A stretch of DNA of 63,507 nucleotides, filler included, from Dehalococcoidia bacterium (GTDB lineage Bacteria > Chloroflexota > Dehalococcoidia > DSTF01 > JACRBR01), in NCBI GenBank assembly GCA_041494685.1. It is 4 parts of 4 records of this genome, joined end to end, with 100 filler letters (N's around TTAATTAATTAA, not from the genome) between each part and the next. Parts side by side here need not be neighbours in the genome. Positions count along the whole stretch, not along the records: positions 1 to 18,892 come from JBGQBE010000059.1; 3 more parts are not named here. The stretch is one strand, 5' to 3'. Positions 1-17,162 of this stretch are shown one piece after another. A program made the position numbers and the translations under genes. Position 1 is the stretch's first letter, and each line of letters starts with the position of its first letter. The notes beneath the pieces were generated by a model. It was not told where the DNA came from and searched no databases. It worked only from the letters and a program-made list of their open reading frames with translations.

Positions 1-1
1 C

Positions 2-199
2 GAGCCGGGCCATCGCACCGCACTCGTGCACCTCGGCATGCGCCCGCTGCTCGAACTCGACATGCGTCTCGGCGAGGGCTCGGGCGCGGCGCTGGCGTTG
101 ACGCTGCTGAGGGCGGCGCTCCGCATCCCGCGCGAGATGGCGACGTTCGAGTCGGCCGGCGTCTCCCGCTCTGACGGCGAGACACAGCCCGAAGCCTGA
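2..199 (+). CDS. cobT: Nicotinate-nucleotide--dimethylbenzimidazole phosphoribosyltransferase, 3' end (partial)
   Basis: Hand translation from base 2 gives EPGH...[18 protein letters not shown]...[10 protein letters not shown], the CobT C-terminal motif. The TGA overlaps the cobS ATG. Confidence 0.9.
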
Positions 200-963: not shown

Positions 964-988
964 TCCCGCAGCGGGTACCCTGTCGCCG

Positions 989-1588: not shown

Positions 1589-2331
1589 TCCCGATCGCGG
1601 ACAGCACGCGCTCACGGACGTTCCCTTGGGTGAACGTGACGCTCATCGCGTTGAACTTCGCGGTCTTCTTCTACGAGATCGCGATCAGCAAGCAGTCGAT
1701 CCTCGGCCACGTCACGCAGCTCGACGTCTTCATCTACCACTGGGGCAACATCTCCGCCTGCACGGTCGACGCCTGGGGGCAGCACGTGGCGCAGGCGAGC
1801 AGCGCCGATTGCGTCGCACAGCCGCACCCGGCATGGACGCCGCTGACGGCGATGTTCATCCACGGCGGCTGGCTGCATATCCTGGGGAACATGCTGTTCC
1901 TCTGGATCTTCGGGGACAACGTCGAGGACGCGATGGGGCACGCGCTCTACGCGGTCTTCTACCTGCTGGTGGGCCTCGCCGGCGCCTGCACGCAGATGTT
2001 CGTCAACGTGCACGACCTGACGCCGGCGATCGGCGCGAGCGGCGCCATCGCGGGCGTGATGGCGGCGTACCTGGTGCTCTTCCCGCGCGCGACGGTCGTC
2101 GTGATCATCCCCGTGCTGTTCTTCCTCCCGTTCCCGGTACCGGCGTTCCTGCTGATCGGCATCTGGTACATCGCCCAGTTGATGAGCGGTTTCGCGACGC
2201 TGGGCGTCGGGACGAGTGTCGGCTACTTCGCGCATATTGGCGGCTTCTTCGCGGGGGCGCTGGCGGTCAACTTCTTCGCGGTGCATCGTGGCCGGGCGCG
2301 CGCCCGCCCGGTGCGGGGGCTGCGCAGGTGA
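1585..2331 (+). CDS. Rhomboid family intramembrane serine protease
   Basis: HGGWLHILGNM, GASGAIAG (catalytic Ser), AHIGGF (catalytic His); ATGA overlap with cobU. Confidence 0.92.
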   Translation: MIPIADSTRSRTFPWVNVTLIALNFAVFFYEIAISKQSILGHVTQLDVFIYHWGNISACTVDAWGQHVAQASSADCVAQPHPAWTPLTAMFIHGGWLHILGNMLFLWIFGDNVEDAMGHALYAVFYLLVGLAGACTQMFVNVHDLTPAIGASGAIAGVMAAYLVLFPRATVVVIIPVLFFLPFPVPAFLLIGIWYIAQLMSGFATLGVGTSVGYFAHIGGFFAGALAVNFFAVHRGRARARPVRGLRR

Positions 2332-2370
2332 AGCAGGCGGCGCACCTTCGCACAGTCATAACACCGTAAC

Positions 2371-2401
2371 CTTGACGTACACGTAAAGTCACAGCTAGGA
2401 T
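2371..2401 (+). promoter_or_regulatory. Promoter (-35 TTGACG, -10 TAGGAT) overlapped by an 18-bp palindromic MerR/LiuR-like operator
   Basis: CTTGACGT-AC-ACGTAAAG at 2371-2388; -10 at 2396-2401, 7 nt before the ATG. Confidence 0.7.
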
Positions 2402-2408
2402 CAACCTG

Positions 2409-2912
2409 ATGACCCAGAAGCGCAGCACCGCAGCACCTACCATCGAACCGCCATCCGACGACCAGGCGTACCTGCAGATCGGCGAAGTCGCCGAGCGCAC
2501 GGGCGTCACGCAGCGCACGCTCCGCTTCTACGAAGAGAAGGGGCTGCTCAAGCCGCCATCCCGCCTCGAGGGCGGCTTCCGCCTCTACTCCGAGGACGAC
2601 GTCCGCCGGGTCGAGCAGATCAAGCAGCTCCAGACGCTGCTCGGCTTCACGCTCGCCGACATCAAGGAGATGGTCGAGGCGGAGGAGATCAAGAGCCAGA
2701 TCCGCGCCGAGTACCGCCGCGACGCCGAGATCTCCGAGCGGCGCGCGAAGATCGCGAAGGCCACCGAGGTAACGGAGCGGCAGGTCGCGGTGATCGACCA
2801 CAAGCTGCGGGCGCTGGGCGAGATGAAGGCCGACCTGGAGCGGAAGCTGGCGCAGTACCGCACCTGGACCCAGATGCTCGACGAGCTGGAAGCGGCGCAG
2901 AAGAGCGGCTAA
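2409..2912 (+). CDS. MerR family transcriptional regulator
   Basis: IGEVAERTGVTQRTLRFYEEKGLL HTH followed by a coiled coil. Confidence 0.93.
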   Translation: MTQKRSTAAPTIEPPSDDQAYLQIGEVAERTGVTQRTLRFYEEKGLLKPPSRLEGGFRLYSEDDVRRVEQIKQLQTLLGFTLADIKEMVEAEEIKSQIRAEYRRDAEISERRAKIAKATEVTERQVAVIDHKLRALGEMKADLERKLAQYRTWTQMLDELEAAQKSG

Positions 2913-2983
2913 GCCCAAACAGCCAGCCCACACCAGACGATACCGAAAGCGGCCTCGGTGGCCGCCTTTCCACGCCCGGAACG

Positions 2984-3331
2984 CTACGCGATCGGCGCGC
3001 GGCCGTTGCCCGCCGTCTCTTCGTCCTCGGCGCCTTCGTCTTCGTCCTCGTCCTCTTCGCTGAAGACGCCGGCCTGCGTGCCGCGCCACACCGTCACCAC
3101 GAAGTCGTCGCGGTACGGGTCCGTCGTCAGCACCAGGCGTTCGTCGATCTCGCCGATAAGGTCCTGGATCTCGTCTTCGTCGAAGTCCGGCGGCACACAG
3201 AGCGTCGCGAACGCCATGCCGGACGCGGTGAAGTGGAGATCGACGCGTCCGGCGGCGTCGCCGTCGCTGTCGATCACATACGACTCCGAGTACGGCGTGC
3301 GCGCCTCTCGTTCGAACTGGTACTCCGCCAT
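2984..3331 (-). CDS. Hypothetical acidic protein (115 aa)
   Basis: Start MAEYQFERE after an AAAGGA RBS; host-like codon usage; acidic tail. Confidence 0.75.
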   Translation of the reverse strand: MAEYQFEREARTPYSESYVIDSDGDAAGRVDLHFTASGMAFATLCVPPDFDEDEIQDLIGEIDERLVLTTDPYRDDFVVTVWRGTQAGVFSEEDEDEDEGAEDEETAGNGRAPIA

Positions 3332-3420
3332 GGTCCACGTCCTTTCGCGCGGCCTCGCGCCGCTGCCGCCAGCAGCATACGCCATGCGGCGCCAACGGCG
3401 TCGCGGCGCTACGCTGTGGC

Positions 3421-5022
3421 GTGCAGCAATTCAGCTTCGACTTCCGCGATCCCGTGGTTGAGATCGAGGGCTGGCGGCTCTCGCTGCAGGTGATCACGTT
3501 CGAGAACACCTACGGCATCGCGCCGCCGTCCGTCGAGCGCACCACCGACGGCGCGACCGCGACCGCCGCCCACCTGACGTGGGCCGGCACCCAGCGCACC
3601 GCCGAGGGTACGGCGTCGATCCACGTCGCGCGTACCAACGACGGCATCGAGGCCACGGTCTGCGCGACCGCGCCGGCACGGATCCGCTGCACGAAGTTGA
3701 TCGTCCGCGGGCTGCCCGCCGGCGAGCTGCTGGGGCACCGCTGGACGCGCGGCGCCGTCACGCGCGGCGGCACGACGGTCTACTACCCCGGCACGACGCA
3801 CACGCCGCTGGTCTTCCTGGCGCTGCCGGACGGCGAGCACCTGTACTTCGAGTCGCTGGACGACCGCGTGCGCGCCAAGCGATTCGCGGTCATGCAGCGC
3901 GACGACGGCGTGGCGGTCGAGCTGATCCACGAGGAAGCGGCATACGAAATGGCTTCGAGCATCGCCGTACCGGCATGGCGCATCGGCCGCACGCGCGACC
4001 CCACCGCCGTCGTCCGGCACCACGACGCGCGCGTCGCGGCCGCGTTCGGCATCGAACCGTGGGAGACGCGCGCCGACGTGCCGGCCTGGGCGCGCGGCGT
4101 CTCGCTGGTCGTGGCGCTGCACGGCATGCACTGGAGCGGCTACGCCTTCAACACGTACGACGACATGGCCGAGGCGCTGCGCTTCCTCGCCGCCCGCATG
4201 GACGGGCGCCGCGTGCTGGCGTTCCTGCCTGGCTGGGAGGGCCGCTACTACTGGCAGTATGGCGACTACCGCCCGGAGCCGATGCTCGGCGGCGCGGAGG
4301 GCTTCGCGCGCCTCGCGGCGGTGGCTCGCGGCCTGGGTGTGCACCTGATGCCGATGTTCGGCGTCAACTGCGCCAACACCGGCCTGCCCGGCTACGACAC
4401 GTGGGGCCGCCCCGCCGAGATGCGCTCGCCGTCAGGTCTCGCCTTCCAGGGCAACCGCCCAGACTGGGACGTCAGCCGCGGCCGCGACCCCGGATGGCAG
4501 GCGTGGCTCCACCCCGGCGCGCCGTCGTGGCGCGCGCGGCTGGTCGAGCAGGTGAGCGCGCTCGTCGCGGCGCACGAGATTCCGGCGGTGTTCTTCGACA
4601 CAACGCACGTCTGGCAGAACGACCCACAATACGACGTGTACGCGGGGCTGGTGGCGCTGCGCGACGAGCTGAAGGCGCGCTTCCCGGCCCTGCTGATCGC
4701 CGGCGAGGGCTGGTACGACGCGCTTGGCGCCGTGACGCCGATGACGCACCAGTTCGAGGGGCTGCCGGCGCAATGGCCGGAGGCGTACGCGCGCTCGAAC
4801 CGCTACTGGCTGCACCTGAGCGCCGGCGACCCGTCGCGCAACAGCAGCGGCGTCCACGAGGCCGGCGAGGTGCCGTTCCGCCTCGCCCCGGACGAGCCGC
4901 ACGTCATCCCGACGCTCACGGTCGTCGACGGCACGATCGCCCGCGCGCCCGAAGCGGTAGAACGCATCATCGCGCAGGCTCGCGCCTACGCCGCGCGCTG
5001 GCTGGACAGGAAGACGGGGTAG
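3421..5022 (+). CDS. Hypothetical protein, possible glycoside-hydrolase-like TIM barrel
   Basis: Trp/Tyr-rich 533-aa ORF with AVFFDTTH and LIAGEG segments resembling GH catalytic strands; family not identified. Confidence 0.6.
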   Translation: MQQFSFDFRDPVVEIEGWRLSLQVITFENTYGIAPPSVERTTDGATATAAHLTWAGTQRTAEGTASIHVARTNDGIEATVCATAPARIRCTKLIVRGLPAGELLGHRWTRGAVTRGGTTVYYPGTTHTPLVFLALPDGEHLYFESLDDRVRAKRFAVMQRDDGVAVELIHEEAAYEMASSIAVPAWRIGRTRDPTAVVRHHDARVAAAFGIEPWETRADVPAWARGVSLVVALHGMHWSGYAFNTYDDMAEALRFLAARMDGRRVLAFLPGWEGRYYWQYGDYRPEPMLGGAEGFARLAAVARGLGVHLMPMFGVNCANTGLPGYDTWGRPAEMRSPSGLAFQGNRPDWDVSRGRDPGWQAWLHPGAPSWRARLVEQVSALVAAHEIPAVFFDTTHVWQNDPQYDVYAGLVALRDELKARFPALLIAGEGWYDALGAVTPMTHQFEGLPAQWPEAYARSNRYWLHLSAGDPSRNSSGVHEAGEVPFRLAPDEPHVIPTLTVVDGTIARAPEAVERIIAQARAYAARWLDRKTG

Positions 5023-5077
5023 CTGTCTCGTAGCAGAGCGCGACCCTACAATGGCGGCATTCCTGAGGAGCACGCAC

Positions 5078-5893
5078 ATGGTCCTTGAACGGCTGAAGCT
5101 GGACGGCAAGGTCGCCGTCGTCACGGGCGCGGGGCGCGGCCTCGGACGCCAAATGGCGCTCGCGCTGGCGCAGGCCGGCGCCGACGTCGTCTGCGCCGCG
5201 CGTACCGCCGAGCAGATCGACCGCACGGCTGCCGATATCGCCGCACTGGGACGCCGAGCCGTCGCGCAGCCGACGGACGTACGGGACTCGGCGCAGTGCG
5301 ACGCGCTGATCAAGCGCGCCGTCGACCAGTTCGGCGGCATCGACATCATGCTCTCGAACGCGGGCATCGGCGACATGCGCGGTGCGAACGCTGAGCTCTG
5401 GGACGTGGACGACGACGACTGGCACGACACGCTCGACGTCAACCTCTCGAGCGCGTTCTACTGCGCGCGCGCCGCGTCGAAGCAGATGGCCGCGCAAGGC
5501 CGCGGCGGCACGATCATCAACCTGGCGTCCGGCACCGCCATGCGCGCTTACCCGATGAGCTTCGGCTACGGCGCGGCGAAAGCCGGCGTCATCGCGCTGA
5601 CGAAGTCGCTGAGCGCGATGCTGATCAAGCACCGGGTCCGCGTCAACTGCATCATCCCCGGCTTCGTCATGCAGGCGCCCGCGCAGAACGAGCAGGCCGC
5701 CATCTTCTCGCAGACGCGCGGCCGCTACCTGCCGGCGCAGCGCCTCGGCGAGGCGTGGGAGCTGGGGCCGCTGGCGATCTTCCTGGCATCCGACGCATCG
5801 AGCTACGTCACCGGCCAGGGGTTCGTCATCGACGGCGGGGGACTCGCCGGCGGCCTTGCGCCGATGGGCTTCGCACCCGAGGTGGCGCTATGA
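5078..5893 (+). CDS. Classical SDR oxidoreductase
   Basis: TGAGRGLG, NAG and YGAAK motifs; GAGGAG RBS before ATG 5078. Confidence 0.93.
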   Translation: MVLERLKLDGKVAVVTGAGRGLGRQMALALAQAGADVVCAARTAEQIDRTAADIAALGRRAVAQPTDVRDSAQCDALIKRAVDQFGGIDIMLSNAGIGDMRGANAELWDVDDDDWHDTLDVNLSSAFYCARAASKQMAAQGRGGTIINLASGTAMRAYPMSFGYGAAKAGVIALTKSLSAMLIKHRVRVNCIIPGFVMQAPAQNEQAAIFSQTRGRYLPAQRLGEAWELGPLAIFLASDASSYVTGQGFVIDGGGLAGGLAPMGFAPEVAL

Positions 5894-6696
5894 AGAACGA
5901 ATGGGGCGACGTACGGCTGGGCACCGATGCCTGGGATCTCGGCGGCAAGCGCGCGCTGGTGATCGGCGCGGGCGCGCCCGCGGGCCGCGCGATCGCGTTG
6001 GCGCTGGGCGAGGCGGGCGCGGACGTCACCGTATCGTCCGCGACGACCGACGGCGAGGACATGATGCGCGTCAAGCGCGTGCAGCGGGAGATCACGAAGA
6101 TGGGCCGCCAGTCGGCCGCCGTCGGCACGGACGTGACGCTCGGCACGGGCGTGCAGGTGATGGTGCGGCAGGTCGCCAAGGAGATGGGCGGCATCGACGT
6201 GCTGGTGAACGCGCCGGATCTCTTCCTGGGCAAGCCCGCCGCCGACACGAGCGACATCGACTTCAACCGCGTCATGCAGGTGAACCTGGCGGGCACCTTC
6301 CACGCCTGCCGCGCCGCCGGCAAGGAGATGCTGAAGCAGGAGACCGGCGGCCGCATCATCAACATCGCCTCGGTGCTGGGCGAGCGGGCGATCGCCAACG
6401 CCGCCGCCTACTGCGCGGCGCAGGCCGGCATCCTGAACCTCACCCGCGCGCTGGCGACGGAGTGGGGGCCGCGGAAGATCACCGTCAACGCGATCGCCGC
6501 CGGCTGGATGGAGTACACCGCCGCCATCGGCAACCCCGACCCGGCCGCGAACCAGACCGTCCGCTTCGTGCCGATGAAGCGCGCCGGCGCTGCGGACGAG
6601 CTGGGCCCGCTGGCGGTGTACCTGGCGTCGGACTCGTGCGGCTACATCAGCGGGCAAGTGATGTTCGTGGACGGCGGCCTGACGACGCACCTCTGA
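5890..6696 (+). CDS. SDR-fold protein with degenerate catalytic motifs
   Basis: SDR fold, but IGAGAPAG, NAPD and YCAAQ replace TGxxxGxG, NAG and YxxxK; ATGA overlap with the preceding SDR. Confidence 0.88.
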   Translation: MKNEWGDVRLGTDAWDLGGKRALVIGAGAPAGRAIALALGEAGADVTVSSATTDGEDMMRVKRVQREITKMGRQSAAVGTDVTLGTGVQVMVRQVAKEMGGIDVLVNAPDLFLGKPAADTSDIDFNRVMQVNLAGTFHACRAAGKEMLKQETGGRIINIASVLGERAIANAAAYCAAQAGILNLTRALATEWGPRKITVNAIAAGWMEYTAAIGNPDPAANQTVRFVPMKRAGAADELGPLAVYLASDSCGYISGQVMFVDGGLTTHL

Positions 6697-6731
6697 TCCG
6701 GCCCAGCCCTGCCCATGCGGCATACTGCGGC

Positions 6732-7583
6732 ATGCCCACCGTCAGCGTCCGCGGCATCGATCTCTACTACGAGGAGTACGGCGAGGGGCCCCACCTGGTC
6801 ATCGCCCACGGCCTCATGGGCAGCGTCGCCCTGCTCGAGAGCTTTGGCGAACGCCCGCAAGACATCGCGGCGCGCGGCCTGCACGTCGTGGCCTACGACG
6901 CACGCGGCCACGGCCGCTCCGGCTACAGCACACGCCGCGCCGACTATCGTTTCGAAGCCCAGGCGGAGGACCTCCGCGGCCTGCTCGACGCGCTGGGCAT
7001 CGACCGCGCGAGCCTGTACGGCGGCTCGATGGGCGCGGGCACGGCGCTGATGCTCGCGCTGGCGCACCCGGCGCGCGTCGAGCGGCTCATCCTGCAGTCG
7101 CCGCCGCCGTTTCCCGGGGACAACAGGCCAGCCCAGCGCATGTTCGGCGGCCTCGCGACGCTCTATCAATTGTTCGGGCCCAGGCTCACCGCGCGCATGG
7201 TCACGGGGCTGCCCGCGGTGCGGCGCTCGCAGCAGCAGGCGCCGGGGCTGGACCTGCGCGCGTTCTTCGCGGGTCAGCGCCGCGCGGCGATCGTGCCGGC
7301 GATCCGCGGCCTGCTGCTCGGCGAGCCGCAGGTGCCGGTCGGGCGGCTGGGTGAGGTCGAGCACCCCACGCTGGTGCTGACGCACCCGGACGACGAGATC
7401 CACCCGCTGCGCTCCGGCGAGATCCTGCACGAGCATATGCCGCACGCGAAGCTGGCGGTCGCGCCCACGCCCGCCTACTGGCAGGAGAACCCCGACGCGC
7501 TGACCCACGTCATCTCATCGTTCGTCAAAGGCGAGCCGGTGGCGCAGGGGCTGCCCGGGAAGCCGCCGCACCAGCACGCCTGA
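6732..7583 (+). CDS. Alpha/beta hydrolase
   Basis: HG oxyanion motif, DARGHGRS, GGSMGA nucleophile elbow. Confidence 0.9.
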   Translation: MPTVSVRGIDLYYEEYGEGPHLVIAHGLMGSVALLESFGERPQDIAARGLHVVAYDARGHGRSGYSTRRADYRFEAQAEDLRGLLDALGIDRASLYGGSMGAGTALMLALAHPARVERLILQSPPPFPGDNRPAQRMFGGLATLYQLFGPRLTARMVTGLPAVRRSQQQAPGLDLRAFFAGQRRAAIVPAIRGLLLGEPQVPVGRLGEVEHPTLVLTHPDDEIHPLRSGEILHEHMPHAKLAVAPTPAYWQENPDALTHVISSFVKGEPVAQGLPGKPPHQHA

Positions 7584-7695
7584 GCCGCCGGCGCTATGCA
7601 GATGGCGTATGGTCGATCTGCGGTCCGATCGCGTATAGATGGTGACGGGTGGCGCCGGACACACGGTGGCGCGAGCGAGTACAGGGAGGTCTGCG

Positions 7696-8595
7696 ATGAT
7701 CCTGGTCACCGGCGGCACGGGCTTCGTGGGGTCAGCGATCGTCAGGGAACTGCTGCGCCGCGGCGAGCAGGTCGCGGTGCTGGGCCGCGACGGCGCGAAG
7801 GTCCAGCAGCGCCTCGGCGCCGGCGTGCAGGCCCGCGCCGGCGACGTGCGGCAGCCGGAGACGCTGGCAGCGGCCATGATGGGCGTCGATGTCGTGGTGA
7901 ACGCCGTGCAGTTCCCCGGCTCGCCTGTCGAGAACCGCCGCAAGGGGCTGACGTTCGAGGAGATCGACCTCAAGGGCACGCGTAACCAGGTGGACGCGGC
8001 GAAGAAGGCAGGCGTGCGGCGCTTCGTCTACGTGAGCGGCGTCGGCGCCTCGCGCGACTCGGAGAAGCACTGGTTCCGCTACAAGTGGGAGGCCGAGAAG
8101 TACCTGCAAGACAGCGGCCTGGAGTGGGTGATCGTCCGCCCGACCTGGGTCTACGGCCCGGAAGACGTGTCGCTCAACCGCTTCCTCGGCTTTGCGAAGC
8201 TGCTGCCCTTCATCCCGATGTTCGGCGACGGCAAGCAGGCGATGCAGCCCGTGTTCATCGACGACGTCGGCCGCGTCGCCGCGGACGCTGCGCTGCGCCC
8301 CGAAGCGGCGAACAGGCTCTTCGAGCTCGGCGGCCCCGAAGTGATGACGATGAACGACGTGGTCAAGGTCGCGCTGGAGGTGGCCGGCAAGAAGCGGCCG
8401 CTGCTGCACCAGCCCGCACTCGTTGGCAAGACGATCGGCTCGGTGATGTCGGTGCTGCCGAAGCCGCCGCTCAGCGCCGACGCGATCGACTTCATCACGG
8501 AGCCGGCGGTCGCGGACAACAGCACGCTGGCGCAGGTGCTGCGCCCGAAGCTCACGCCGCTCCGCGACGGCCTCGCCACCTACCTCAAGCGCTAA
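7696..8595 (+). CDS. Atypical SDR, NDUFA9-like NAD(P)-binding protein
   Basis: TGGTGFVG, RPTWVYG and QPVFIDDV motifs; GGGAGG RBS. Confidence 0.88.
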   Translation: MILVTGGTGFVGSAIVRELLRRGEQVAVLGRDGAKVQQRLGAGVQARAGDVRQPETLAAAMMGVDVVVNAVQFPGSPVENRRKGLTFEEIDLKGTRNQVDAAKKAGVRRFVYVSGVGASRDSEKHWFRYKWEAEKYLQDSGLEWVIVRPTWVYGPEDVSLNRFLGFAKLLPFIPMFGDGKQAMQPVFIDDVGRVAADAALRPEAANRLFELGGPEVMTMNDVVKVALEVAGKKRPLLHQPALVGKTIGSVMSVLPKPPLSADAIDFITEPAVADNSTLAQVLRPKLTPLRDGLATYLKR

Positions 8596-8703
8596 CAGGG
8601 TGCGACCTCTCCTCTCGGTGGCGCGGGCTGTTAGCCCATATGCCCGGCTGCGAGCCTCGACAATAGTGCATCCGTACCATCGACATCCCCTCCGTCCGGT
8701 CGC

Positions 8704-8773
8704 TACAATCTCAATGGTAAAGTTTCCGTAACTTGTCTCCGGCCGGTCGGCGGACGTACAGTTCAAGAAACTT
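8704..8773 (+). promoter_or_regulatory. -10 TACAAT followed by two AGTT-N5-AACT palindromes (putative operators)
   Basis: TACAAT 8704-8709; AAGTTtccgtAACTT 8720-8734; CAGTTcaagaAACTT 8759-8773. Confidence 0.6.
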
Positions 8774-8790
8774 AACTGGGCGAGGTACAG

Positions 8791-10143
8791 ATGATCCGGA
8801 CGCGCGTGTTCGAGGTGCTGGAGGAGCGAGGGCAGAAGCAGCGCTGGCTGCTCGGGGCGCTCGAACGCCAGGGCTACAGCGTCAGCGAAGGCTACCTCTC
8901 GCAGATCAAGGCCGGCACGAAACAGCCCGGCCGCCAGTTCATCGAGGCGGCCTGCGCCGTGTTCGGCATGGGCGAGCACCAGTTGTTCTACACCGAAGGA
9001 GGATCGAAGAGCATGGCGGGGAAGAACGTGAAGGCCGTGGCCAAGGCGCCGGTGCGCGGGAAGCGCCAGAAGGGCAAGATCAACGTCGCGATCATCGGGG
9101 TCGGCAACTGCGCCTCCTCCCTGGTACAGGGCCGCTACTTCTACCAGGACGCGCAGGAGGGCCATCTCATCCCGGGCCTGATGCACGTCAATCTCGGCGG
9201 CTACCACATCAGCGACATCAACTTCGTCGCCGCGATCGACATCGACACGAACAAGGTCGGCAAGGATCTCTCCGAAGCAGTCTTCGCGCCGCCGAACAAC
9301 ACCTACAAGTTCAGCGACGTGCCCCACCAGGGCGTGCGCGTGGCGCGCGGCATGACGCACGACGGCCTGGGCAAGTACCTCTCGCAGATCATCACCAAAG
9401 CCACCGGCCCGACGGATGACATCGTCAAGCTGCTGAAGGAGACCGAGACCGACGTCGTCGTCAGCTACCTGCCCGTCGGCTCCGAAGAGGCGACGAAGTG
9501 GTACGTCGAGCAGGTGCTGGCCGCCGGCTGCGCCTTCGTCAACTGCATTCCCGTCTTCATCGCGCGCGACCACTACGGCTACTGGCCCAAGCGCTTCCAG
9601 GAGGCCGGTCTGCCGATCATCGGCGACGACATCAAGTCGCAGGTGGGCGCCACGATCGTGCACCGCGTGCTGACGCGGCTCTTCCGCGACCGCGGCGTGC
9701 GGCTGGACCGTACCTACCAGCTCAACTTCGGCGGCAACACCGACTTCCTCAACATGCTGGAGCGCGAGCGGCTGGAATCGAAAAAGATTTCCAAGACGAA
9801 CGCCGTCACGTCGCAGCTTGACTACGAATTGCCGGCCTCAGACGTGCACGTCGGCCCGTCGGACCACGTGCCTTGGCTTCTGGACCGCAAATGGTGCTAC
9901 ATTCGCATGGAGGGCACGACCTTCGGCAATGTCCCGCTCAACGCGGAGGTGAAGCTGGAGGTCTGGGACAGCCCCAACTCCGCCGGCGTCGTCATCGACG
10001 CGATCCGCTGCTGCAAGATCGCGCTGGACCGCGGACTCGCCGGACCGCTGCTGGGCCCGTCGGCGTACTTCATGAAGTCGCCGCCCACCCAGTACGCGGA
10101 CGATGTCGCGCACGACATGGTGGAGGAGTTCATAGCGGGATGA
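8791..10143 (+). CDS. ino1: Myo-inositol-1-phosphate synthase with N-terminal XRE-type HTH domain (internal start at 9013)
   Basis: [39 protein letters not shown] and WDSPNSAG motifs. Residues 1-67 resemble an XRE HTH ([15 protein letters not shown]...LF). Confidence 0.93.
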
Positions 10144-10150
10144 GGCCCGA

Positions 10151-11074
10151 TTGCTGGACAGACTTGCGTACTGGCTCTTCCGGCTAGCGATCATCGTGAC
10201 GCGGCCCCTGCCGCTCAGGCTGGGCTACTGGTTTGGCGAGCGCGTCGCGCTGATCTGCTACTGGGTCATCTTTCCCCGCCATCGCAGGGCGCTCAACGCG
10301 AACCTGGCGCACGTGCTGCAAAGCAACGACGCCAGGTTCGTCGATTCCGTGGCGCGCCGTACCTTCCGCAACTTCGGCAAGTACGTCATCGACTTCATCC
10401 ACTTCCCGGTCATCACGCGCGAAGAAGTACAGCAGCGCATCCGCTTCGACCAGTGGGACGAGTTCAACGCCTGCGTCGACTCCGGGCGCGGGATCATCGT
10501 GGCCACGCTCCATTTCGGCATCTGGGATCTCGGCGCGGCCGCGCTGGCCGCGCACGGCTACCCGATCAACGCCATTGCCGAGACGTTCCGTTACCAGCCG
10601 ATGAACGACCTCGTGCAGGGGTCGCGGACGAAGCTGGGCATGAAGGTGATCAACCACGACCGCCTGGGGCCCACCGTGTTCAAGGCCTTGCGCCGCGGCG
10701 AGATGCTGGCCATGCTCATCGACATCGCGACCGAGGAGACGGGCATCCGCGTCAACTTCTTCGACGCGCCCGCGCTGGTCTCGCCGGCGCCGGCCCGCAT
10801 CGCGCTGCGCACCAACTCGTGGGTCGTGCCCGCCGTCGTGCTGCGCGGCCCGGAGGACGACCTCGTCATCCGCCCGATGCTCGACACGAGCCTGCGCGAC
10901 TACGTGCCCACCGGCGACGAATCCTACGACGTGCCGGAACTCACGCGGCTCATCATGCATTCGATGGAGGCGACGATCCGCCAGTATCCCGACCAGTGGT
11001 TCGTCTTCCGCCGCATGTGGAACCATCCGGCGACCGCCCCCGCCTCGATGGGCAAGCTGGCCGAAGAGGTCTGA
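10151..11074 (+). CDS. Lipid acyltransferase, PatA/LpxL family
   Basis: HFGIWD (H-x4-D), V-x-FF and PDQW motifs. Confidence 0.88.
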   Translation: MLDRLAYWLFRLAIIVTRPLPLRLGYWFGERVALICYWVIFPRHRRALNANLAHVLQSNDARFVDSVARRTFRNFGKYVIDFIHFPVITREEVQQRIRFDQWDEFNACVDSGRGIIVATLHFGIWDLGAAALAAHGYPINAIAETFRYQPMNDLVQGSRTKLGMKVINHDRLGPTVFKALRRGEMLAMLIDIATEETGIRVNFFDAPALVSPAPARIALRTNSWVVPAVVLRGPEDDLVIRPMLDTSLRDYVPTGDESYDVPELTRLIMHSMEATIRQYPDQWFVFRRMWNHPATAPASMGKLAEEV

Positions 11075-11077
11075 CGC

Positions 11078-12025
11078 TTGCTCTTCCGCATCCCCTTCAT
11101 CCGCAAGTGGCGCTACTACCTGATGCGGTTCGTGATCGCCACCATCGGGCGCATGCCGCTCTCGTGGCGGTACGGCATCGCCCGCTTCGGGGCGGACCGC
11201 ATCTACGAGTGGGGGCCGCGCATCGGCCCGAACGTGCGCAGCAACATGCGGCACGTGCTGGGCCCCGACGCCAGCGAAGAAGAGATCGATCGCCTCGCGC
11301 GTGACTGCGCGCGCAACACAGCCCGCTACTACGCCGATGTCGTCGGCATGCACCGCATGGACATCGGCGCGTTCTACGAGCACGACCTGGTGCTCGAAGG
11401 GCTGCACTACGTGACGGAGGCCCAGAAGTCCGGTCACGGCGTCGTGCTGGCGTCGGCGCACTACGCCAACCCTGAGTTCGCCGTGCAGGGACTCGCCGCG
11501 GCCGGCATCAAGGTCTTCGCGCTCGTCGAGCCGCTGGACCCGCCCGAACTCGGGCGACTGATGCGCGGGCTGCGGACGGTACACGGCCACATCTACGCAC
11601 CCGTGAGCTTCGGCGCGGTGAAGAACGCGATGCAGTGGCTCCGCCAAGGCGGCGTCGTCGCGATCCTGGTGGACCGCGACATCCAGAAGAACGGTATCGA
11701 GTTGGAGTTCTGCGGCGCAAAGGCGCGCTTCCCGACCGGCGCCGTAGACCTCGCGATACGCACGGACGCCGTGCTGGTGCCCGGATGGGTGCGCCGTGAG
11801 GGCGGCTTCAAGGTCCGCGCCACCCTCGGCCCGCCGCTGCCGCTGGTGCTCACCGGCGACCGCGACGAGGACCTGCGCGTGAACACGCAGCGCATGCTCG
11901 ATCTGTTCGAGCAGCACCTGAAGCGCGATCCCGGACAGTGGAGCGTGCTCGACCGCATCTGGCCCGACGACCCGCCGCCGAGCCGGGACGCCGCGCCCGC
12001 CACGCAGCCGGCCGCCGGAGACTAG
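11078..12025 (+). CDS. Second PatA/LpxL family acyltransferase
   Basis: HYANPE, LVDRD, FPTGA and PGQW motifs. Confidence 0.86.
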   Translation: MLFRIPFIRKWRYYLMRFVIATIGRMPLSWRYGIARFGADRIYEWGPRIGPNVRSNMRHVLGPDASEEEIDRLARDCARNTARYYADVVGMHRMDIGAFYEHDLVLEGLHYVTEAQKSGHGVVLASAHYANPEFAVQGLAAAGIKVFALVEPLDPPELGRLMRGLRTVHGHIYAPVSFGAVKNAMQWLRQGGVVAILVDRDIQKNGIELEFCGAKARFPTGAVDLAIRTDAVLVPGWVRREGGFKVRATLGPPLPLVLTGDRDEDLRVNTQRMLDLFEQHLKRDPGQWSVLDRIWPDDPPPSRDAAPATQPAAGD

Positions 12026-12070
12026 GCGGTACAATAGCGGCGCATCCCCAGCGCAGCGCCGGAGCACACC

Positions 12071-12856
12071 TTGGGCACCGCCGACCTCCACATCCACACA
12101 CGCTACGGCGACGGCATGGCGACCGTGCCGGAACTGCTCGCGTACGTCGAGGAGCGCTGCGACCTCGACGTTATCGCGGTGACGGAGCACGACACGCTGC
12201 TCGCGGCCGACGAGGCGCGCGAGCTGCACGCCCGCGGCGGCTTCCGCTTCGGCCTGGTCTGCGGCATGGAGGTGACGACGCTGGACGGCCACCTGCTTGC
12301 GCTCTACATCGACGAGCCCATCGCGAGCTTCCAGCGCATGGAACCCACGCTGGAGGCGATCCGGCGGCAGGGCGGCCTGGCGGTCGTGCCGCATCCGCTC
12401 TCCTGGCTGACCCGCAGCGTCAGCGAGCGCGTCTTCGACCGCATCGCGGCGGTGCGGAACGACGGCATCTACTTCGATGGCATCGAGGAGTACAACCTGA
12501 GCCCCGCCGGCCGCGTCACGTCGGCGAGGGCGCGGCGGCTGAACCGCGAGCGCCTCGGCCTCGCCGCGCTCGGCTGCAGCGACGCGCACTTCCTGCAGGC
12601 GATCGGCAGCGCCTACACGGAGTTTCCCGGCACGAGCGCGGACGACCTGCGCGGCGCGATCGAGCGGCACGAGACGTCCGGCGCGGCGGGACGCGCGCCG
12701 CGCATGTCGGAGCTGGGATACCGCAACGTCGCGCTGCAGCAGTTGCGCGGGATGATGGCGACGCCGCGCACCATGGGCTGGGCGCCGACGATCCGCAGCT
12801 TCATCGTCAGCCGCGCGCGCCACAAGCCGCCGCGGCCCGAGGGCCCGGCGCGATGA
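12071..12856 (+). CDS. PHP-domain phosphoesterase
   Basis: DLHIHT, TEHD, GMEV, GHLL, PHP and SDAH metal-ligand motifs. Confidence 0.9.
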   Translation: MGTADLHIHTRYGDGMATVPELLAYVEERCDLDVIAVTEHDTLLAADEARELHARGGFRFGLVCGMEVTTLDGHLLALYIDEPIASFQRMEPTLEAIRRQGGLAVVPHPLSWLTRSVSERVFDRIAAVRNDGIYFDGIEEYNLSPAGRVTSARARRLNRERLGLAALGCSDAHFLQAIGSAYTEFPGTSADDLRGAIERHETSGAAGRAPRMSELGYRNVALQQLRGMMATPRTMGWAPTIRSFIVSRARHKPPRPEGPAR

Positions 12857-14004
12857 AGATCGCCCTCGTCTCGCCGTACGACTGGGCTGTGTCTGGCGGC
12901 GTCAACAACCACATCGCCCACCTGGCGGAGAAGTTCGTGGCGCTGGGGCACGAACCGCACATCATCGCACCCGGCGCGAAGCAGGCGACCAGCGCCGTCT
13001 GCCCGATCACGACGATCGGGCGGCCGATCCCGCTGCCGGTGAGCGGCTCCGTCGCGCGCATCACGCTGTCGCTGCGCACCGCCGGCCAGGTGAAGCGCGT
13101 GCTGGCCGAGACCGACTTCGACATCGTGCACGTGCACGAGCCGTTCATGCCGCAGCTGCCGATCCAGTTCCTCCGCTACTCCACGACGGTGAACGTCGGC
13201 ACGTGGCACGCCCAGCGCGCGTCGAACTTCGCCTACGTGTACGGCCGGCGGCTGATCAAGCGCTGGCAGCGCAAGCTCGACGGCAAGATCGCCGTGTCGC
13301 AGGCGGCGGTGAAGCACATCGAGAAGTACTTCCCGGGCTTCTACAACGTCATCCCGAACGGCGTGGACATCGAGCACTTCGGCCGCGCCGTGGAGCCGCT
13401 GCCGGAGTTCACCGACGGCAAGCGGAACGTGCTGTTCGTCGGCCGGCCGGAGAAGCGCAAAGGATTGAAGTTCCTGATCCGCGCATTCGTCGGCGTGCAG
13501 GCGGCGCTGCCGGACACGCGGCTGATCGTCGTCGGCGCAGGCGAGTTCGGCCGCTACGAGAACGCCGTCCGCAAGGCGCACCTGCGCGACGTCGTCTTCC
13601 GCAGCCACGTGCCCTTCGACGAACTGCCGCGCTACCACCGCACCGCGCACGTCTTCTGCGCGCCGAACACCGGCTTCGAGAGCCAGGGCATCGTGCTGCT
13701 CGAAGCGATGGCCGCGGGGCTGCCTGTCGTCGCGTCGAACATCGACGGCTTCGCCGGCGTCGTCACGCACGGCGTCGAGGGGCTGCTCGTGCGGCCGGAG
13801 GACCCGCAGGCGCTCGCGGCCGGGCTGATCGAGTTGCTGCGCGACCCGCGCCGCGCCGCCGCGATGGCCGCCCGCGGCGTCGAGCGCGCGCAGTACTACA
13901 GCTGGGACCGCGTCACCCAGCAGGTGCTCTCGTACTACGAGCGCCTGATCTACGAACGCCGCATGGCGGAGCGCGGAGCCGGCGAGCGCCCCACGGACGA
14001 GTGA
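12853..14004 (+). CDS. GT4 glycosyltransferase, PimA-like mannosyltransferase
   Basis: SPYDWAVSGGV, HVHEP, RKG and ESQGIVLLEAMAAG motifs; ATGA overlap with the PHP gene. Confidence 0.87.
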   Translation: MKIALVSPYDWAVSGGVNNHIAHLAEKFVALGHEPHIIAPGAKQATSAVCPITTIGRPIPLPVSGSVARITLSLRTAGQVKRVLAETDFDIVHVHEPFMPQLPIQFLRYSTTVNVGTWHAQRASNFAYVYGRRLIKRWQRKLDGKIAVSQAAVKHIEKYFPGFYNVIPNGVDIEHFGRAVEPLPEFTDGKRNVLFVGRPEKRKGLKFLIRAFVGVQAALPDTRLIVVGAGEFGRYENAVRKAHLRDVVFRSHVPFDELPRYHRTAHVFCAPNTGFESQGIVLLEAMAAGLPVVASNIDGFAGVVTHGVEGLLVRPEDPQALAAGLIELLRDPRRAAAMAARGVERAQYYSWDRVTQQVLSYYERLIYERRMAERGAGERPTDE

Positions 14005-14146
14005 CCCGGAGCGGGCGACGGCCACGTGCGGCCGGCCCAAGCGCGCTCGCGCGACGCGCGCGATGCTACACCCCCGGCCAGGTGCGCTGCCGGGCTGCGC
14101 TACGCGCCGAACGGCGCACGCTCTCACGACGTTGGGCCTTTGATTG

Positions 14147-14545
14147 TCAGTTGTTTTCTCGCGATTTTCTTGTGCGGTGGGCGCTGGCGGCGGGTTGGGG
14201 GACGGGCGCAGATTCGGCGGACGGCGATGCGGCGGCGGGCGGGGCACCAGATCGCGGTCGGGACTGACTGTTCGGATTGACCGCGTCGCGCAATCGATCA
14301 AAGAGCAGCGGGTGGATGAGCTGGACGACCCTGCGCATGTTGTGGCTGCCGCCGGGCGGGCGGAGGAGGCCGGAGTCGCGGAGGGCGATGATGACCTCGC
14401 GCAGGACGGGCTCGTCGTGGCGCAGCTCGAAGAAGCGGAGGGCTACGGCGACCTCGCGCAGGCGGCGTGAGTTGTTGCCGGTGCGGAGGGCGTTCAGGTT
14501 GCCGCGCGGCGTGCCCGCGCCGGGACGCCGTCCTCCTCGTGGCAT
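14147..14545 (-). CDS. Hypothetical protein with GG-RPGAG-P-GNLNAL-xG N-terminal motif
   Basis: MPRGGRRPGAGTPRGNLNALRTG after a GAAAGGGG RBS. Confidence 0.6.
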   Translation of the reverse strand: MPRGGRRPGAGTPRGNLNALRTGNNSRRLREVAVALRFFELRHDEPVLREVIIALRDSGLLRPPGGSHNMRRVVQLIHPLLFDRLRDAVNPNSQSRPRSGAPPAAASPSAESAPVPQPAASAHRTRKSRENN

Positions 14546-14682
14546 GTGGTGGCCCCTTTCTCCGACAGATGGAACGCTGGGGCGAGCGTACGCCGAGGCG
14601 GCGGCGATCTCGAAGCGGGGAGTGTCATCGAAGAGAATTACTGACGTTCCTGCCTAGCGGCGAGCGATCCCCTTGACGTGCG

Positions 14683-15105
14683 TCAGTAGGTCTCCCGGAA
14701 CTTGACGAGCGTGTGTATGAGCCGATCTCGGCGCGTCGGCGAAATCGAGAGCTGCAACTCGAACCCACTGCACTTCGCGGAGAGTTCGCGCAATTTGGCG
14801 TCAACGGTCTGGCGATCCGGTGGACTAAGTCGTACAAGCTCGGCTCGTTCAAGAACTAGCTTGTTGAGGTTGTTCGCCGCTGCTCGCGCGCAGAGGTCTG
14901 GTGTAAGGGCTCCGAACGCGGTGGCTGCGAGAAAAGTCGGGCGTATCGACACGCGGGAAGACGTGAACAATTTTGCGGTGGATCGAAGGATACGCTCCAT
15001 AGCGGCGGGGTTCGGCTGGGCAAGAACCTCTAAGTTTCCCCACGCCGTCGCGATGCGTTCCCACTTGTGCCCGAAAGGATCACGTTGCGGATTGCGCGGC
15101 GGCAT
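14683..15105 (-). CDS. Hypothetical protein (140 aa) coupled to the GmrSD gene
   Basis: AGGAGG RBS overlaps the upstream TAG stop; lower GC than the host. Confidence 0.65.
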   Translation of the reverse strand: MPPRNPQRDPFGHKWERIATAWGNLEVLAQPNPAAMERILRSTAKLFTSSRVSIRPTFLAATAFGALTPDLCARAAANNLNKLVLERAELVRLSPPDRQTVDAKLRELSAKCSGFELQLSISPTRRDRLIHTLVKFRETY

Positions 15106-15113
15106 TTCTCCTC

Positions 15114-16982
15114 CTACGTGCGAGGCCCCGGCCAGATACGGAGAGCGAGATCGGCGAGTTTTTCGCCACGAGCGTCGACTTGCGCTTCGTTCCAGTCTGT
15201 CGCTTGGTGGAAGTACGAGTTCAACGCCAACAGGCTATTTGCGATTTCCGTTCGTTTGAGGCTGTAGGGGCCGTTGCTCACGGAAGAATTTAGGGGTTGG
15301 GTTAGCAATGTGAGATTGCCAAGACGGTGCGTGGCAGTTTCTCGCTCCGTCCTTGCGTCGAGCCAGTTCTCCCCATCCTTCAGGTAGAGTGGCCAGTCGT
15401 CCTCGCTTGGGTGCTGCGGCATCACGTGCTCGATCGTGAGCTCGCTATTGATCGACATATCCTCGCTATATCGGTGTCTCGATGCGTGATCCAACGCTTG
15501 GAGGATCATCTGCATCCGCCGAGGGGTTACGGTCCGATAAAGTGGGTCGTTCACGAGGTGGCGCCTGAATTCATCGTCGCCGGGCCACACCGCGCTCTCA
15601 GCTGCGGATGACCCGAGCTGAGCGCGAAGTCCTGCGGCAGTCGGCACGCCGGCACGCCGAAGCTTTCCTAAGGCTTCGAGGAAGAGTCGATTGTAAGCCT
15701 TAGCATTGTGCCCGCAAACGATGCGTCGGACGAGGAACGACTCAACGTCGGTGAGCATCTCCAGGAATTCGGACGAATCGGTCCCCAACTCTCCTGCAGC
15801 CCAAAGGAGAAGGGGATACGCCGTAGCAGTATCTAGAACCCTGAGCCGGCGACAGGAGATGGCGAAGTCGGTTGACGAGTCCGGGGCGAGCATCACCGCG
15901 TAGAACTTGCTGAATCGAAGTAGAGATTGAAGTTCGTTTTCGACATCGCGCTCGGCTGATTCCCACCAGTCGCGAAACGCTTGATAGAGGTGCCCGATCT
16001 TCAGTTCGTCGCCCGTGAGGAACGTCACGTAGTGAAAGAGGAACAGATCGAGGCGGCTACGCTTCAGCCGTCCCTGTCGCTCCTCCTCCTTCCAGAATGG
16101 CTGTTTCGGCGGGTCTTCCTCGTAGGTTCGCCAGAGTTCGTCGTACAGCCGCGTGACGTCGCGGCCGTCGCGGGTGGCTGTGAGGAATACGAAATTACGG
16201 ACTAGATCAGAGGGTGTCAGCGGCTCGCCGCGAGCGTTGAGCGTCTCGAAGATTACCTGTGCGTTATCTTCAGCGTCGAGCTCGATCGTCACAAGCTGGA
16301 TGTTCTGAATCAGAGCTTCGATCAAGTCGTGTGCGCGTTGCTCCACGGGAAGATCGACGAGATCGAATGGCAACTCTTCGGGGTCGTCATCAAGGTAGTC
16401 TCGTACCATTTGCGAAAAGTAGAGATAGGCTTCAACGACACCCGGCCGCGGAGGTCGCCACTTCTTGTATTTGAATTCATGAAACCGTCGATACAGCTCT
16501 TCCAGTTCCGACGACGATCCTGCTTCCATGACGTTGGCAACATGTACCTGCATGGAACTCGTCGGCCACACTTTGAAGCGCTCGTCGGGCGTCACAAGCT
16601 GTCCGGTGTTCAGCGTCAAGCGCTGGAGACGATCTTTGAGATACGGGTCATCAAGCACGGCGCCGGCCTCGTCTCGTATCGCCGCGAGCAATACCTGGAG
16701 CGTCGTCAACCGCTGCTGCCCATCGATGATGTCAACCACCGGCACGCGCGAGAGAGGAGTGAGAGTGAGATTGAGCACCAAGGCGCCGAGGAAGTGCTTG
16801 TGTAGCCGCGTGCCCGGCTGGGAGCGGTATCGGACAAGCTCTGCTGTCTGATCTATTAGATCGTCCCAGAGCGGTTCCCACTGCCCCTCACGATTCCAGA
16901 CGTATCCTCGTTGGAAGAGCGGAACAACGTACCGCCGATGCTTCTCGAAGATCTCGAAGACGGTGGACTTGTCGGTCTTCAT
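15114..16982 (-). CDS. DUF262-DUF1524 (GmrSD/SspE-like) modification-dependent endonuclease
   Basis: QRGYVW, IDGQQRLTT, FETLNARG, IEHVMPQ and LGNLTLL...N HNH-like motifs; low GC. Confidence 0.92.
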   Translation of the reverse strand: MKTDKSTVFEIFEKHRRYVVPLFQRGYVWNREGQWEPLWDDLIDQTAELVRYRSQPGTRLHKHFLGALVLNLTLTPLSRVPVVDIIDGQQRLTTLQVLLAAIRDEAGAVLDDPYLKDRLQRLTLNTGQLVTPDERFKVWPTSSMQVHVANVMEAGSSSELEELYRRFHEFKYKKWRPPRPGVVEAYLYFSQMVRDYLDDDPEELPFDLVDLPVEQRAHDLIEALIQNIQLVTIELDAEDNAQVIFETLNARGEPLTPSDLVRNFVFLTATRDGRDVTRLYDELWRTYEEDPPKQPFWKEEERQGRLKRSRLDLFLFHYVTFLTGDELKIGHLYQAFRDWWESAERDVENELQSLLRFSKFYAVMLAPDSSTDFAISCRRLRVLDTATAYPLLLWAAGELGTDSSEFLEMLTDVESFLVRRIVCGHNAKAYNRLFLEALGKLRRAGVPTAAGLRAQLGSSAAESAVWPGDDEFRRHLVNDPLYRTVTPRRMQMILQALDHASRHRYSEDMSINSELTIEHVMPQHPSEDDWPLYLKDGENWLDARTERETATHRLGNLTLLTQPLNSSVSNGPYSLKRTEIANSLLALNSYFHQATDWNEAQVDARGEKLADLALRIWPGPRT

Positions 16983-17162
16983 GTTTTAGCTAACTCGTGA
17001 TAGAGCCGTGTTACGCGGGTTGGCGGTCAGCGGATCATAGCCGCGCGAACGTGCAAAAGTAAAGCAACTCGGCAAGGACGGTGAGCGCTGCTACACTGTC
17101 GTCGCGAAGGGGCTGATCGGGCGATCAGCCCCCGATCGTGCTGTCCGCGGCGTTGGAGGCGC

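Follow-up and report, generated by a model that had tools for sequence, protein, structure and literature searches.

The stretch of DNA analysed here (the window) is 63,507 nucleotides (nt) long and comes from the genome of a Dehalococcoidia bacterium of the phylum Chloroflexota (assembly GCA_041494685.1, here G000). It consists of four parts joined by runs of N at 18893-18992, 35673-35772, and 50260-50359, and the gene in question lies in the first part, contig C59, to which only positions 1-18892 belong. The gene is one continuous open reading frame (ORF) encoding 450 amino acids (aa) on the plus strand (8791..10143), exactly as the original prediction stated. It encodes an XRE-type helix-turn-helix (HTH) domain, a linker, and a complete inositol phosphate synthase, Ino1. 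The linker carries a second Shine-Dalgarno (SD) sequence followed by an in-frame ATG (Met75), from which a shorter Ino1 devoid of the HTH could be translated. Two palindromes, O1 and O2, lie upstream of the gene.

An XRE-type head on a complete Ino1 enzyme

The Cro/XRE-type fold that the original prediction assigned to the N-terminus is found by profile search, structure prediction, and structure comparison alike. A profile of 37 N-terminal sequences matches solved XRE regulators, namely ClgR (expectation value (E) 9.3e-6), SinR (1.4e-3), EspR, and TP901-1 CI, and the likeness spans helix 2 to helix 5. The homologue P0076 carries precomputed matches to PF13560 and PF01658. In the N-terminal alignment, 19 positions are invariant: F7, R13-L20 (RGQKQRWL), S32, E33, S37, Q38, K40, G42, K44, P46, F50, and L65. 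In the AlphaFold2 model, residues 1-70 are confident (block means of the predicted local distance difference test score (pLDDT), 77-90) and form five helices (residues 6-13, 17-26, 33-41, 48-58, and 62-65) between two short strands. When the model is compared with the PDB by Foldseek, the top matches are all XRE-type repressors. CylR2 is the best of them, with a template modelling (TM) score on the target of 0.85 and a root-mean-square deviation of 1.5 Å over 69 columns, followed by SaPI Stl, DdrO, CI, and SinR. Like the head of the fused protein, CylR2 of Enterococcus faecalis (PDB 1utx, 2xiu) is about 66 aa long and has the five-helix XRE fold with flanking short β strands. However, the two share 19% sequence identity, and CylR2 is a free-standing dimer, whereas the domain described here is tethered to an enzyme.

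The linker is disordered in both models (pLDDT 27-48 over the two, below 50 at residues 71-93, and 27-29 in the full-length model), and the HTH stays confident in the full-length model (pLDDT 82-90). Therefore, judging by the models, the HTH folds on its own and is joined to the enzyme by a flexible tether. In the 37 distinct genes that we compare throughout, which are the loci left after removal of duplicates and of L011, the linker is 28-40 aa long, and its net charge has a median of +5 and a range of -4 to +10. A short isoform starting at Met75 would open with a strongly basic tail (residues 75-96, 9013-9078), which could give unspecific DNA contacts or affinity for acidic membranes.

The rest of the protein is covered by Ino1 from end to end. 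All positions (1-355 of 355) of TIGR03450 (mycothiol_INO1, NCBIfam) are matched by residues 97-448 with 540.5 bits, and residues 95-450 align over their whole length with residues 14-367 of the Mycobacterium tuberculosis Ino1 structure 1gr0 (E 3e-146). Therefore, the enzyme part is complete, in agreement with the original prediction. The Pfam profile PF01658 (Inos-1-P_synth) matches residues 286-394 with 124.3 bits against a cut-off of 27 (E 3e-36). The TIGR03450 match does not reach the equivalog cut-off of 638 bits; by these profile scores, the protein is an Ino1, yet one outside the mycothiol-type equivalog. The N-terminal Ino1 stretch starting AI(I/V), which we take to be dinucleotide-binding, is identical in 1gr0 and invariant in 36 fused proteins. 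Residues 302-395 are at low confidence in the full-length model, which is a monomer.

Recurrence of the fusion and of its internal start

The original prediction named a stop codon between the HTH and the internal start in relatives as a sign of two separate genes; none is seen. Contigs from other sequencing runs cross the junction with no indel between HTH, linker, and Ino1. The X2 contig spans 8665-9096 with one substitution (8743), the X3 contig spans 8839-9090 with none, and X1, probably the source sample, is identical across 8600-9398.

A search for the same architecture, which the original prediction had suggested, finds it widely. When residues 1-96 are searched against a collection of 5.8 billion proteins, 95 protein clusters out of 119 candidates match at E <= 1e-3. 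PF01658 is present in 89 of these clusters (438-485 aa), and the other six are fragments (271-313 aa). At the level of DNA, a query with the 74-aa N-terminus and one genome per species returns 42 public loci, 36 of which are full in-frame fusions. The carriers are all metagenome-assembled genomes (MAGs), titled Chloroflexota, Dehalococcoidia ('Chloroflexia' in some), or Acidobacteriota. The six loci that are not intact comprise one at a contig end (L043), one with an N gap (L022), three with frameshifts (L042, L052, and L054), and one truncated paralogue (L053). Long-read MAGs are the source of the three frameshifted loci, each of which has several frameshifts, also inside Ino1. Among 40 related genomes, 24 carry the fused gene, 7 a stand-alone ino1, 5 fragments only, and 4 no gene or an unrelated weak match. 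The 24 fused genes comprise 22 uninterrupted ones (16 in the window's family f1, counting the unpublished genome G021, which enters no other claim, all 4 in family f5, and 2 in f2), one cut by a contig end (f2), and one, in genome G005, interrupted by a TGA codon. The seven stand-alone genes belong to families f3 and f4, and their match begins at residue 52-88. Because the same in-frame layout recurs in dozens of diverged genes, the fused architecture is far beyond chance, and we conclude from these comparisons that the fusion is real and under selection.

We also searched for the HTH outside the fusion. Among proteins of 40-130 aa, no convincing free-standing copy is found; the 10 matches all resemble truncated pieces of the fusion, being labelled partial, continuing into the linker and beyond, or being chimeric. 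When 400 genomes sampled evenly across the phylum are searched, the N-terminal domain is found in none but G000 (E <= 1e-12, with at most 12 candidates scored per genome). Within Chloroflexota, the HTH domain appears to be confined to the window's order. Around one acidobacterial carrier, 8 of 41 Acidobacteriota genomes have any Ino1, of which 6 are fused, 1 is stand-alone, and 1 is a fragment. A maximum-likelihood tree of the Ino1 domain unites the fused proteins of Acidobacteriota in a single clade (support 99 in the Shimodaira-Hasegawa-like approximate likelihood ratio test (SH-aLRT)) and nests it within the f1-type group of Chloroflexota (96). We take this to mean that the fused gene passed between phyla together with the candidate operators described below, as a self-contained unit. 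The tree is a quick one, with SH-aLRT support only, a midpoint root, and no outgroup, so the direction of this transfer and the loss of the HTH from the stand-alone ino1 of f3 and f4 are best guesses only.

The internal start is as the original prediction described it: AGGAGG at 8997-9002 lies 10 nt ahead of the in-frame ATG of Met75 (9013-9015). An internal SD and start are kept in all 37 distinct genes, although the linker varies in sequence and length. The start-type codon is always in frame and is ATG in 34 genes, GTG in one (L031), and TTG in two (L041 and L047). It is the sole start-like codon of the linker in 28 of the 37 genes, and exactly one ATG is present in 33. A GGAG-type SD lies 5-10 nt upstream of it, with a predicted duplex energy of -7 kcal/mol or below in 35 of 37 genes and a median of -9.0 kcal/mol. 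As a control, only 27 of 920 other in-frame ATG, GTG, and TTG codons of the same genes (2.9%) reach -7 kcal/mol. In the window, the internal duplex has -11.9 kcal/mol and that of the first start -8.2 kcal/mol; the latter has a median of -6.1 kcal/mol over the 37 genes and about -0.5 kcal/mol in the deep clade. The stronger internal SD suggests that more short than long chains would be made, and thus much enzyme and little repressor.

The internal start is found at three positions, namely at residue 68 (L050 and L051), at residues 73-78 (the main group), and 3-4 codons before the motif INVA (the deep clade), and each position has its own AAAGGAG or GAAGGAGG. In the five codons before the internal start, GGA makes up 39 of 48 Gly codons versus 103 of 1329 elsewhere in the genes, and GAA makes up 25 of 43 Glu codons versus 227 of 933 elsewhere. 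At the protein level, a Met occupies the corresponding linker position in about 86 of the 95 homologues and Val or Leu does so in 4, whereas 3 have a Met three residues before INVA, and in 2 none is visible. Because the nucleotide-level signal persists in a linker of such variable length, the comparison points to selection acting on the internal start site itself.

Stand-alone relatives begin at GTG-GKINVA with their own SD, and the internal start of the deep clade lies at the same place. This coincidence fits an origin in which an upstream HTH gene was fused to ino1 and the ino1 start was retained. In the deep-clade locus L044, a promoter scan puts TTGACG-18-GATAAT at a position ending 22 nt before the first ATG. 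The first SD is also nearly absent from the deep clade, and the long form is probably translated poorly there, from a short leader.

In G005 (locus L005, G005:C21), the codon of the invariant Trp19 reads TGA (GQKQR-stop-LL), and the internal SD, the ATG, and Ino1 are intact. The long isoform may have been lost naturally in this genome, or the TGA may be a sequencing error; the variant fits a reading with two isoforms. As to transcripts, 6 of 24 listed runs are RNA, all with small shares.

Palindromes, promoter, and neighbouring genes

In the fused genes, O1 has the consensus GGTAAAGTT-N5-AACTTGAC(C) around the core AAGTT-N5-AACTT. Across the 37 fused loci, the core occurs with at most one mismatch in 20 and with at most two in 29, in both phyla, 65-116 nt upstream of the start. 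In O2, the left arm is degenerate and -10-like (TACAGT), and the right arm reads AAACTT(A/T)AC(C). Of the 37 loci, 21 have its right half-site CTT[AT]A[CT]C no more than 60 nt from the start, compared with an expectation of 0.0012 for 60 nt of the window's own genome; the window itself has the variant CTTAACT. The exact O1 core occurs once in this 3.29-Mb genome of 68% guanine plus cytosine (GC), with 0.15 occurrences expected. Sites with one mismatch to the core number 12 genome-wide including O2 (11 besides O1 and O2), with about 7 expected.

The palindromes accompany the HTH. None of the seven stand-alone ino1 loci has them; the best core match there has 3-5 mismatches, and no half-site is present. 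The acidobacterial fused genes keep both O1 and O2 despite different neighbour genes. Because two conserved palindromes occur upstream of fused genes only, the proposed role of the fused protein as a DNA-binding regulator has gained support.

A putative promoter can be placed between the palindromes from the aligned upstream regions, its -35 element within the right arm of O1 and its -10 element within the left arm of O2. The pattern TTGAC(c/g), 17-18 nt, TAnnGT recurs upstream of fused genes in both phyla.

A search of the genome for core sites yields no wider regulon that we would propose; one site is promoter-like, and no gene that can be named lies near it. This site (G000:C38:5960-5985, GTAAAGTTcgcccATCTTGACA, one core mismatch) is the only other O1-like site with promoter-like flanks; it lies in a lower-GC intergenic stretch, and the next called ORF is about 800 nt off. 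A further palindrome, ATGGT-N8-ACCAT, is found at 8663-8680 (ATAGTGCATCCGTACCAT); a -10-like TAnnnT comes after it, and O1 lies about 55 bp downstream of the palindrome. The palindrome occurs 115-129 nt before the start, with 0-1 mismatch, in 14 of 38 loci listed, all from main-group Chloroflexota and none from Acidobacteriota. A similar site, ATGGTGCGTCCGTACTAT (G000:C12:54634), lies just upstream of bioY in the same genome. The stand-alone ino1 genes of f3 (L055, L056, L059, and L061) have upstream regions of another kind: a conserved leader of about 100 nt follows a TTGATAGAAT-like promoter located about 130 nt upstream. This leader contains GCAGCGGGCCGTCCCGC and, further on, CCGGCGAUCGGGAGCGGC, and may be an RNA-level regulator that replaces the HTH. 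Rfam gives no match in five stand-alone ino1 loci and, at gathering score, none in positions 1-18892 of the window.

Downstream of the fused gene, the window carries two acyltransferase genes, a PHP-domain gene, and a glycosyltransferase gene (Table 1). In the Chloroflexota loci, ino1 has these genes behind it in the same order, be it fused or stand-alone; the acidobacterial fused gene is on its own, and its neighbours are convergent and unrelated. The downstream genes make up a candidate operon for an inositol lipid of the phosphatidylinositol mannoside (PIM)-like kind. From this operon structure we infer, for Chloroflexota only, a control of inositol-lipid synthesis. Just past the operon lie a GmrSD-type restriction endonuclease gene (GmrSD_N and GmrSD_C, 15114-16982, minus strand) and, adjoining it, a 140-aa ORF without a Pfam match (14683-15105, minus strand).

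Table 1 Features of the fused ino1 locus, in window coordinates
Feature	Position	Strand	Basis
O1, operator candidate GGTAAAGTT-TCCGT-AACTTGTCT, with exact core AAGTT-N5-AACTT at 8720-8734	8716..8738		comparison
Putative promoter: -35 TTGTCT (8733-8738), 18-nt spacer, -10 TACAGT (8757-8762)	8733..8762	+	aligned upstream regions
O2, operator candidate CGTACAGTT-CAAGA-AACTTAACT, 39 bp downstream of O1, core with one mismatch	8755..8777		inverted-repeat pair
First start (predicted long isoform): moderate SD GAGG (8782-8785), ATG (8791-8793)	8782..8793	+	duplex energy
XRE/Cro-type HTH domain, residues 1-68	8791..8994	+	profile, AlphaFold, Foldseek
Disordered linker, residues 69-96; variable, basic in most relatives, carries internal SD and start	8995..9078	+	both models
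Internal ribosome-binding site GAAGGAGGA (8995-9003) and ATG (9013-9015, Met75) of the predicted 376-aa short isoform	8995..9015	+	duplex energy, conservation
Ino1 domain (myo-inositol-1-phosphate / inositol-3-phosphate synthase), residues 97-450, and stop codon	9079..10143	+	PF01658, TIGR03450, 1gr0
Acyltransferase (Lip_A_acyltrans)	10151-11074	+	Pfam
Acyltransferase (Lip_A_acyltrans)	11078-12025	+	Pfam
PHP-domain protein	12071-12856	+	Pfam
GT4 glycosyltransferase	12853-14004	+	Pfam

A proposed self-repressing enzyme: model, alternatives, and relatives

The original prediction read the gene as the source of a plain enzyme and of a DNA-binding enzyme-regulator, and the analysis supports this interpretation in every part that sequence and structure comparison can check. 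On balance, we think it probable that one mRNA gives rise to a bifunctional enzyme-repressor, of the kind known as a trigger enzyme, and to a plain enzyme. Translation from the first ATG (8791) would yield the 450-aa protein with the XRE HTH, a flexible linker of about 28 aa, and complete Ino1; translation from GAAGGAGGA and the ATG at 9013 would yield the 376-aa Ino1 without the HTH. The long form would bind the two 23-bp inverted repeats O1 and O2, which are 39 bp apart and overlap the promoter or directly follow it, and would thereby repress its own operon. Ino1 enzymes are homotetramers; therefore, the enzyme body could serve as an oligomeric scaffold for the HTH heads and supply the oligomerization that small XRE repressors need for palindromes. 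Long and short chains could mix in one tetramer, and how many DNA-binding heads it carries would then depend on the ratio in which the two starts are used. The acyltransferase, PHP, and glycosyltransferase genes, which point in the same direction as ino1 and probably serve to make an inositol lipid, would come under the same loop in Chloroflexota; the acidobacterial loop would control only ino1. Control by a ligand such as nicotinamide adenine dinucleotide (NAD(H)), glucose-6-phosphate, or inositol phosphate is possible, as a speculation.

Several points weigh against this model. When residues 1-74 alone are compared with Pfam, HTH_31 matches residues 11-64 below threshold (19.7 bits, E 0.0011, cut-off 27). 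In the Foldseek comparison, the E-values get no better than 4.9e-3, which is weak but normal for a domain of about 70 aa, and the match probabilities are 0.92-1.00. The SD energies are calculated with a generic anti-SD string in place of the 16S tail of this bacterium. The compared genes are related, and the counts overstate the number of independent events. The RNA run X19 covers only 9842-10163, with several differences, and represents the conserved part of a relative's gene, not the junction. The O1 core has three or more mismatches in 8 of the 37 loci, in the region searched. In a consensus scan of the window, the promoter proposed here is not called (8 of 12 matches) and TCGACA-18-TACAAT at 8680-8709 is; among three other loci scanned, the homologous promoter is called in L044 and not in L037 or L023. 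The palindromes may accordingly sit in a leader, not over the promoter. With the upstream promoter, O1 and O2 would lie at about +1 to +60, and both geometries are compatible with repression. Finally, the ATGGT-N8-ACCAT palindrome may be the site of another regulator.

Alternative readings concern either the gene or the sites upstream of it. As for the gene, the fusion protein could be functional and the internal SD and start a little-used relic of the ancestral ino1 start, so that only one isoform matters. The deep clade suits such a history, its internal start lying exactly where stand-alone relatives start, as if the stop between two genes had been lost. A relic should decay, however, and this site is kept in all 37 genes, whose products share only 41-72% identity in their first 96 residues. 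The site lies in a linker variable in length and sequence, at three positions, each with a new GGAG, it uses the rare codons GGA and GAA, and it has the stronger SD of the two starts. We consider a relic unlikely. The fusion might also be an artefact, with two genes in truth, or with Met75 as the true start and an upstream frame open by chance. A high-GC genome has many long spurious open frames, and three public loci are frameshifted, but those three are the long-read MAGs with frameshifts also within Ino1. The 19 invariant N-terminal positions represent conservation at the protein level, the frame is unbroken in 36 of 42 public loci and in 22 related genomes, and contigs from other runs cross the junction without indels. 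With no stop between residues 68 and 75 in the relatives, a bridged junction, and protein-level conservation, we reject this reading, to which we give next to no credence.

As for the upstream sites, the palindromes could be promoter elements or the sites of a separate regulator, and the HTH could bind a protein, RNA, or other DNA, or tune the enzyme. The right arm of O1 does contain TTGAC, a -35-like hexamer, and ATGGT-N8-ACCAT indicates that other factors probably act at the locus. Nevertheless, no promoter role falls to the left arm of O1, GGTAAAGTT, which is conserved in both phyla all the same; the palindromes occur only with the HTH, are lacking from 7 of 7 stand-alone loci, and moved with the gene into Acidobacteriota. 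Moreover, the exact core has no second copy in the genome, as would suit a regulator that is encoded at its one and only target. These points make it quite unlikely that the palindromes are promoter elements or sites of a separate regulator. It is a good deal less likely still that O1 and O2 act as an RNA structure in the 5' leader of the upstream promoter and not as DNA operators. They are 76% complementary over 17 nt, and the best promoter of the scan (8680-8709) puts both of them in the leader; yet the sequence AAGTT/AACTT itself is conserved, not pairing alone, as is typical of protein-binding sites, no Rfam family matches, and the elements co-occur with a DNA-binding domain. We therefore retain the enzyme-repressor with two starts as the preferred reading.

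Judged by its domains, the fused Ino1 belongs functionally with BirA, NadR, PutA, and RbkR, enzymes that carry a DNA-binding domain. Among bacteria, the classical trigger enzymes with an HTH at the N-terminus are BirA, the biotin protein ligase and repressor of the bio operon, and NadR. The fused Ino1 resembles them in having an N-terminal HTH on a metabolic enzyme of the regulated pathway and an operator, here a candidate one, at the pathway promoter. It differs in the enzyme, in the pathway, and in having an XRE domain, whereas theirs is a winged helix. BirA dimerizes on DNA only with a bound reaction intermediate, whereas a ligand switch in the fused Ino1 is a speculation. In addition, we know of no second internal start in BirA that would give an enzyme free of the DNA-binding domain. 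PutA combines a ribbon-helix-helix (RHH) domain with proline dehydrogenase and pyrroline-5-carboxylate (P5C) dehydrogenase. Like the fused Ino1, it has an N-terminal DNA-binding domain, and it regulates itself, as we propose for the fused Ino1, through operators at its own promoter, which are candidates in our case; unlike it, PutA has an RHH and not an HTH, a redox-driven switch between DNA and membrane, and a single isoform. Internal in-frame starts that give two isoforms are known from the genes of IF2, ClpB, and CheA. The fused ino1 shares with them a conserved in-frame internal start with its own SD inside the ORF, its isoforms being predicted from sequence. RbkR is described as a bifunctional archaeal riboflavin kinase and regulator found by comparative genomics (PMC5397151). 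As presented in that source, it too joins a DNA-binding domain to an enzyme that acts on a small molecule, in a fusion restricted by lineage; unlike the fused Ino1, it is archaeal and has another enzyme and another DNA-binding domain (PMC5397151).

A further parallel concerns Ino1 itself. In an Ino1-domain search of 1.84 billion representatives, with 20 of 150 listed proteins domain-scanned, we find P0107 (486 aa). Its N-terminal part shows two RHH-like repeats and matches Arc weakly (E 3.7e-4), and a Met-containing linker (..GKETMATSNG..) and Ino1 come after it. P0107 thus has a small DNA-binding module N-terminal to Ino1 and a Met in the linker, as the fused protein does. Its module is an Arc-like RHH and not XRE, which points to an independent fusion event. 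Other Ino1 architectures are seen in P0115 (837 aa), with an intein (Intein_splicing and LAGLIDADG) in Ino1, P0244 (611 aa), with an N-terminal NTP_transferase domain, and P0132 (692 aa), with a C-terminal GNAT domain (Acetyltransf_6). In the full-text literature searched, from which subscription journals are largely absent, no description of an HTH-Ino1 fusion is found, and domain databases may list the architecture without comment. What appears to be new in these sequences is a conserved dual-start design, together with candidate operators, on an enzyme-repressor.

Inositol phosphate synthesis is the committed step for bacterial inositol lipids. To our knowledge, the regulation of ino1 outside Corynebacteriales, which have IpsA, is essentially unknown. 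IpsA is reported as a LacI-type regulator of ino1 in Corynebacterium and Mycobacterium that controls the formation of inositol-derived lipids (PMC3899939). Control of ino1 at the level of transcription is also what we predict for the fused HTH; unlike IpsA, a separate LacI-family protein, the XRE head is within the enzyme itself. In its most complete form, which we offer tentatively and regard as rather doubtful as a whole, the model describes a self-contained cassette of one gene, two operators, and two starts that gauges and sets how much of its own enzyme is made. Long and short chains would co-assemble, the number and geometry of heads per tetramer, and perhaps the ligand state of the active site, would set the repression, and the unit would have moved between phyla.

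The locus offers a compact and directly testable regulatory design, with one gene, two translation starts, and two candidate operators, and its XRE-HTH-enzyme fusion joins a short list of enzyme-repressors. The conserved internal start would uncouple enzyme dosage from regulator dosage, a twist that we have not found described. The cassette is small and apparently portable between phyla, and could be a part for synthetic biology if it works as proposed. An Arc-like RHH-Ino1 beside the XRE form hints at convergence on the same solution, which would be of wider interest for the ways in which metabolic enzymes come to regulate themselves. If this is true, Ino1 would be a recurrent case of an enzyme that captures its own repressor while keeping a repressor-free isoform.

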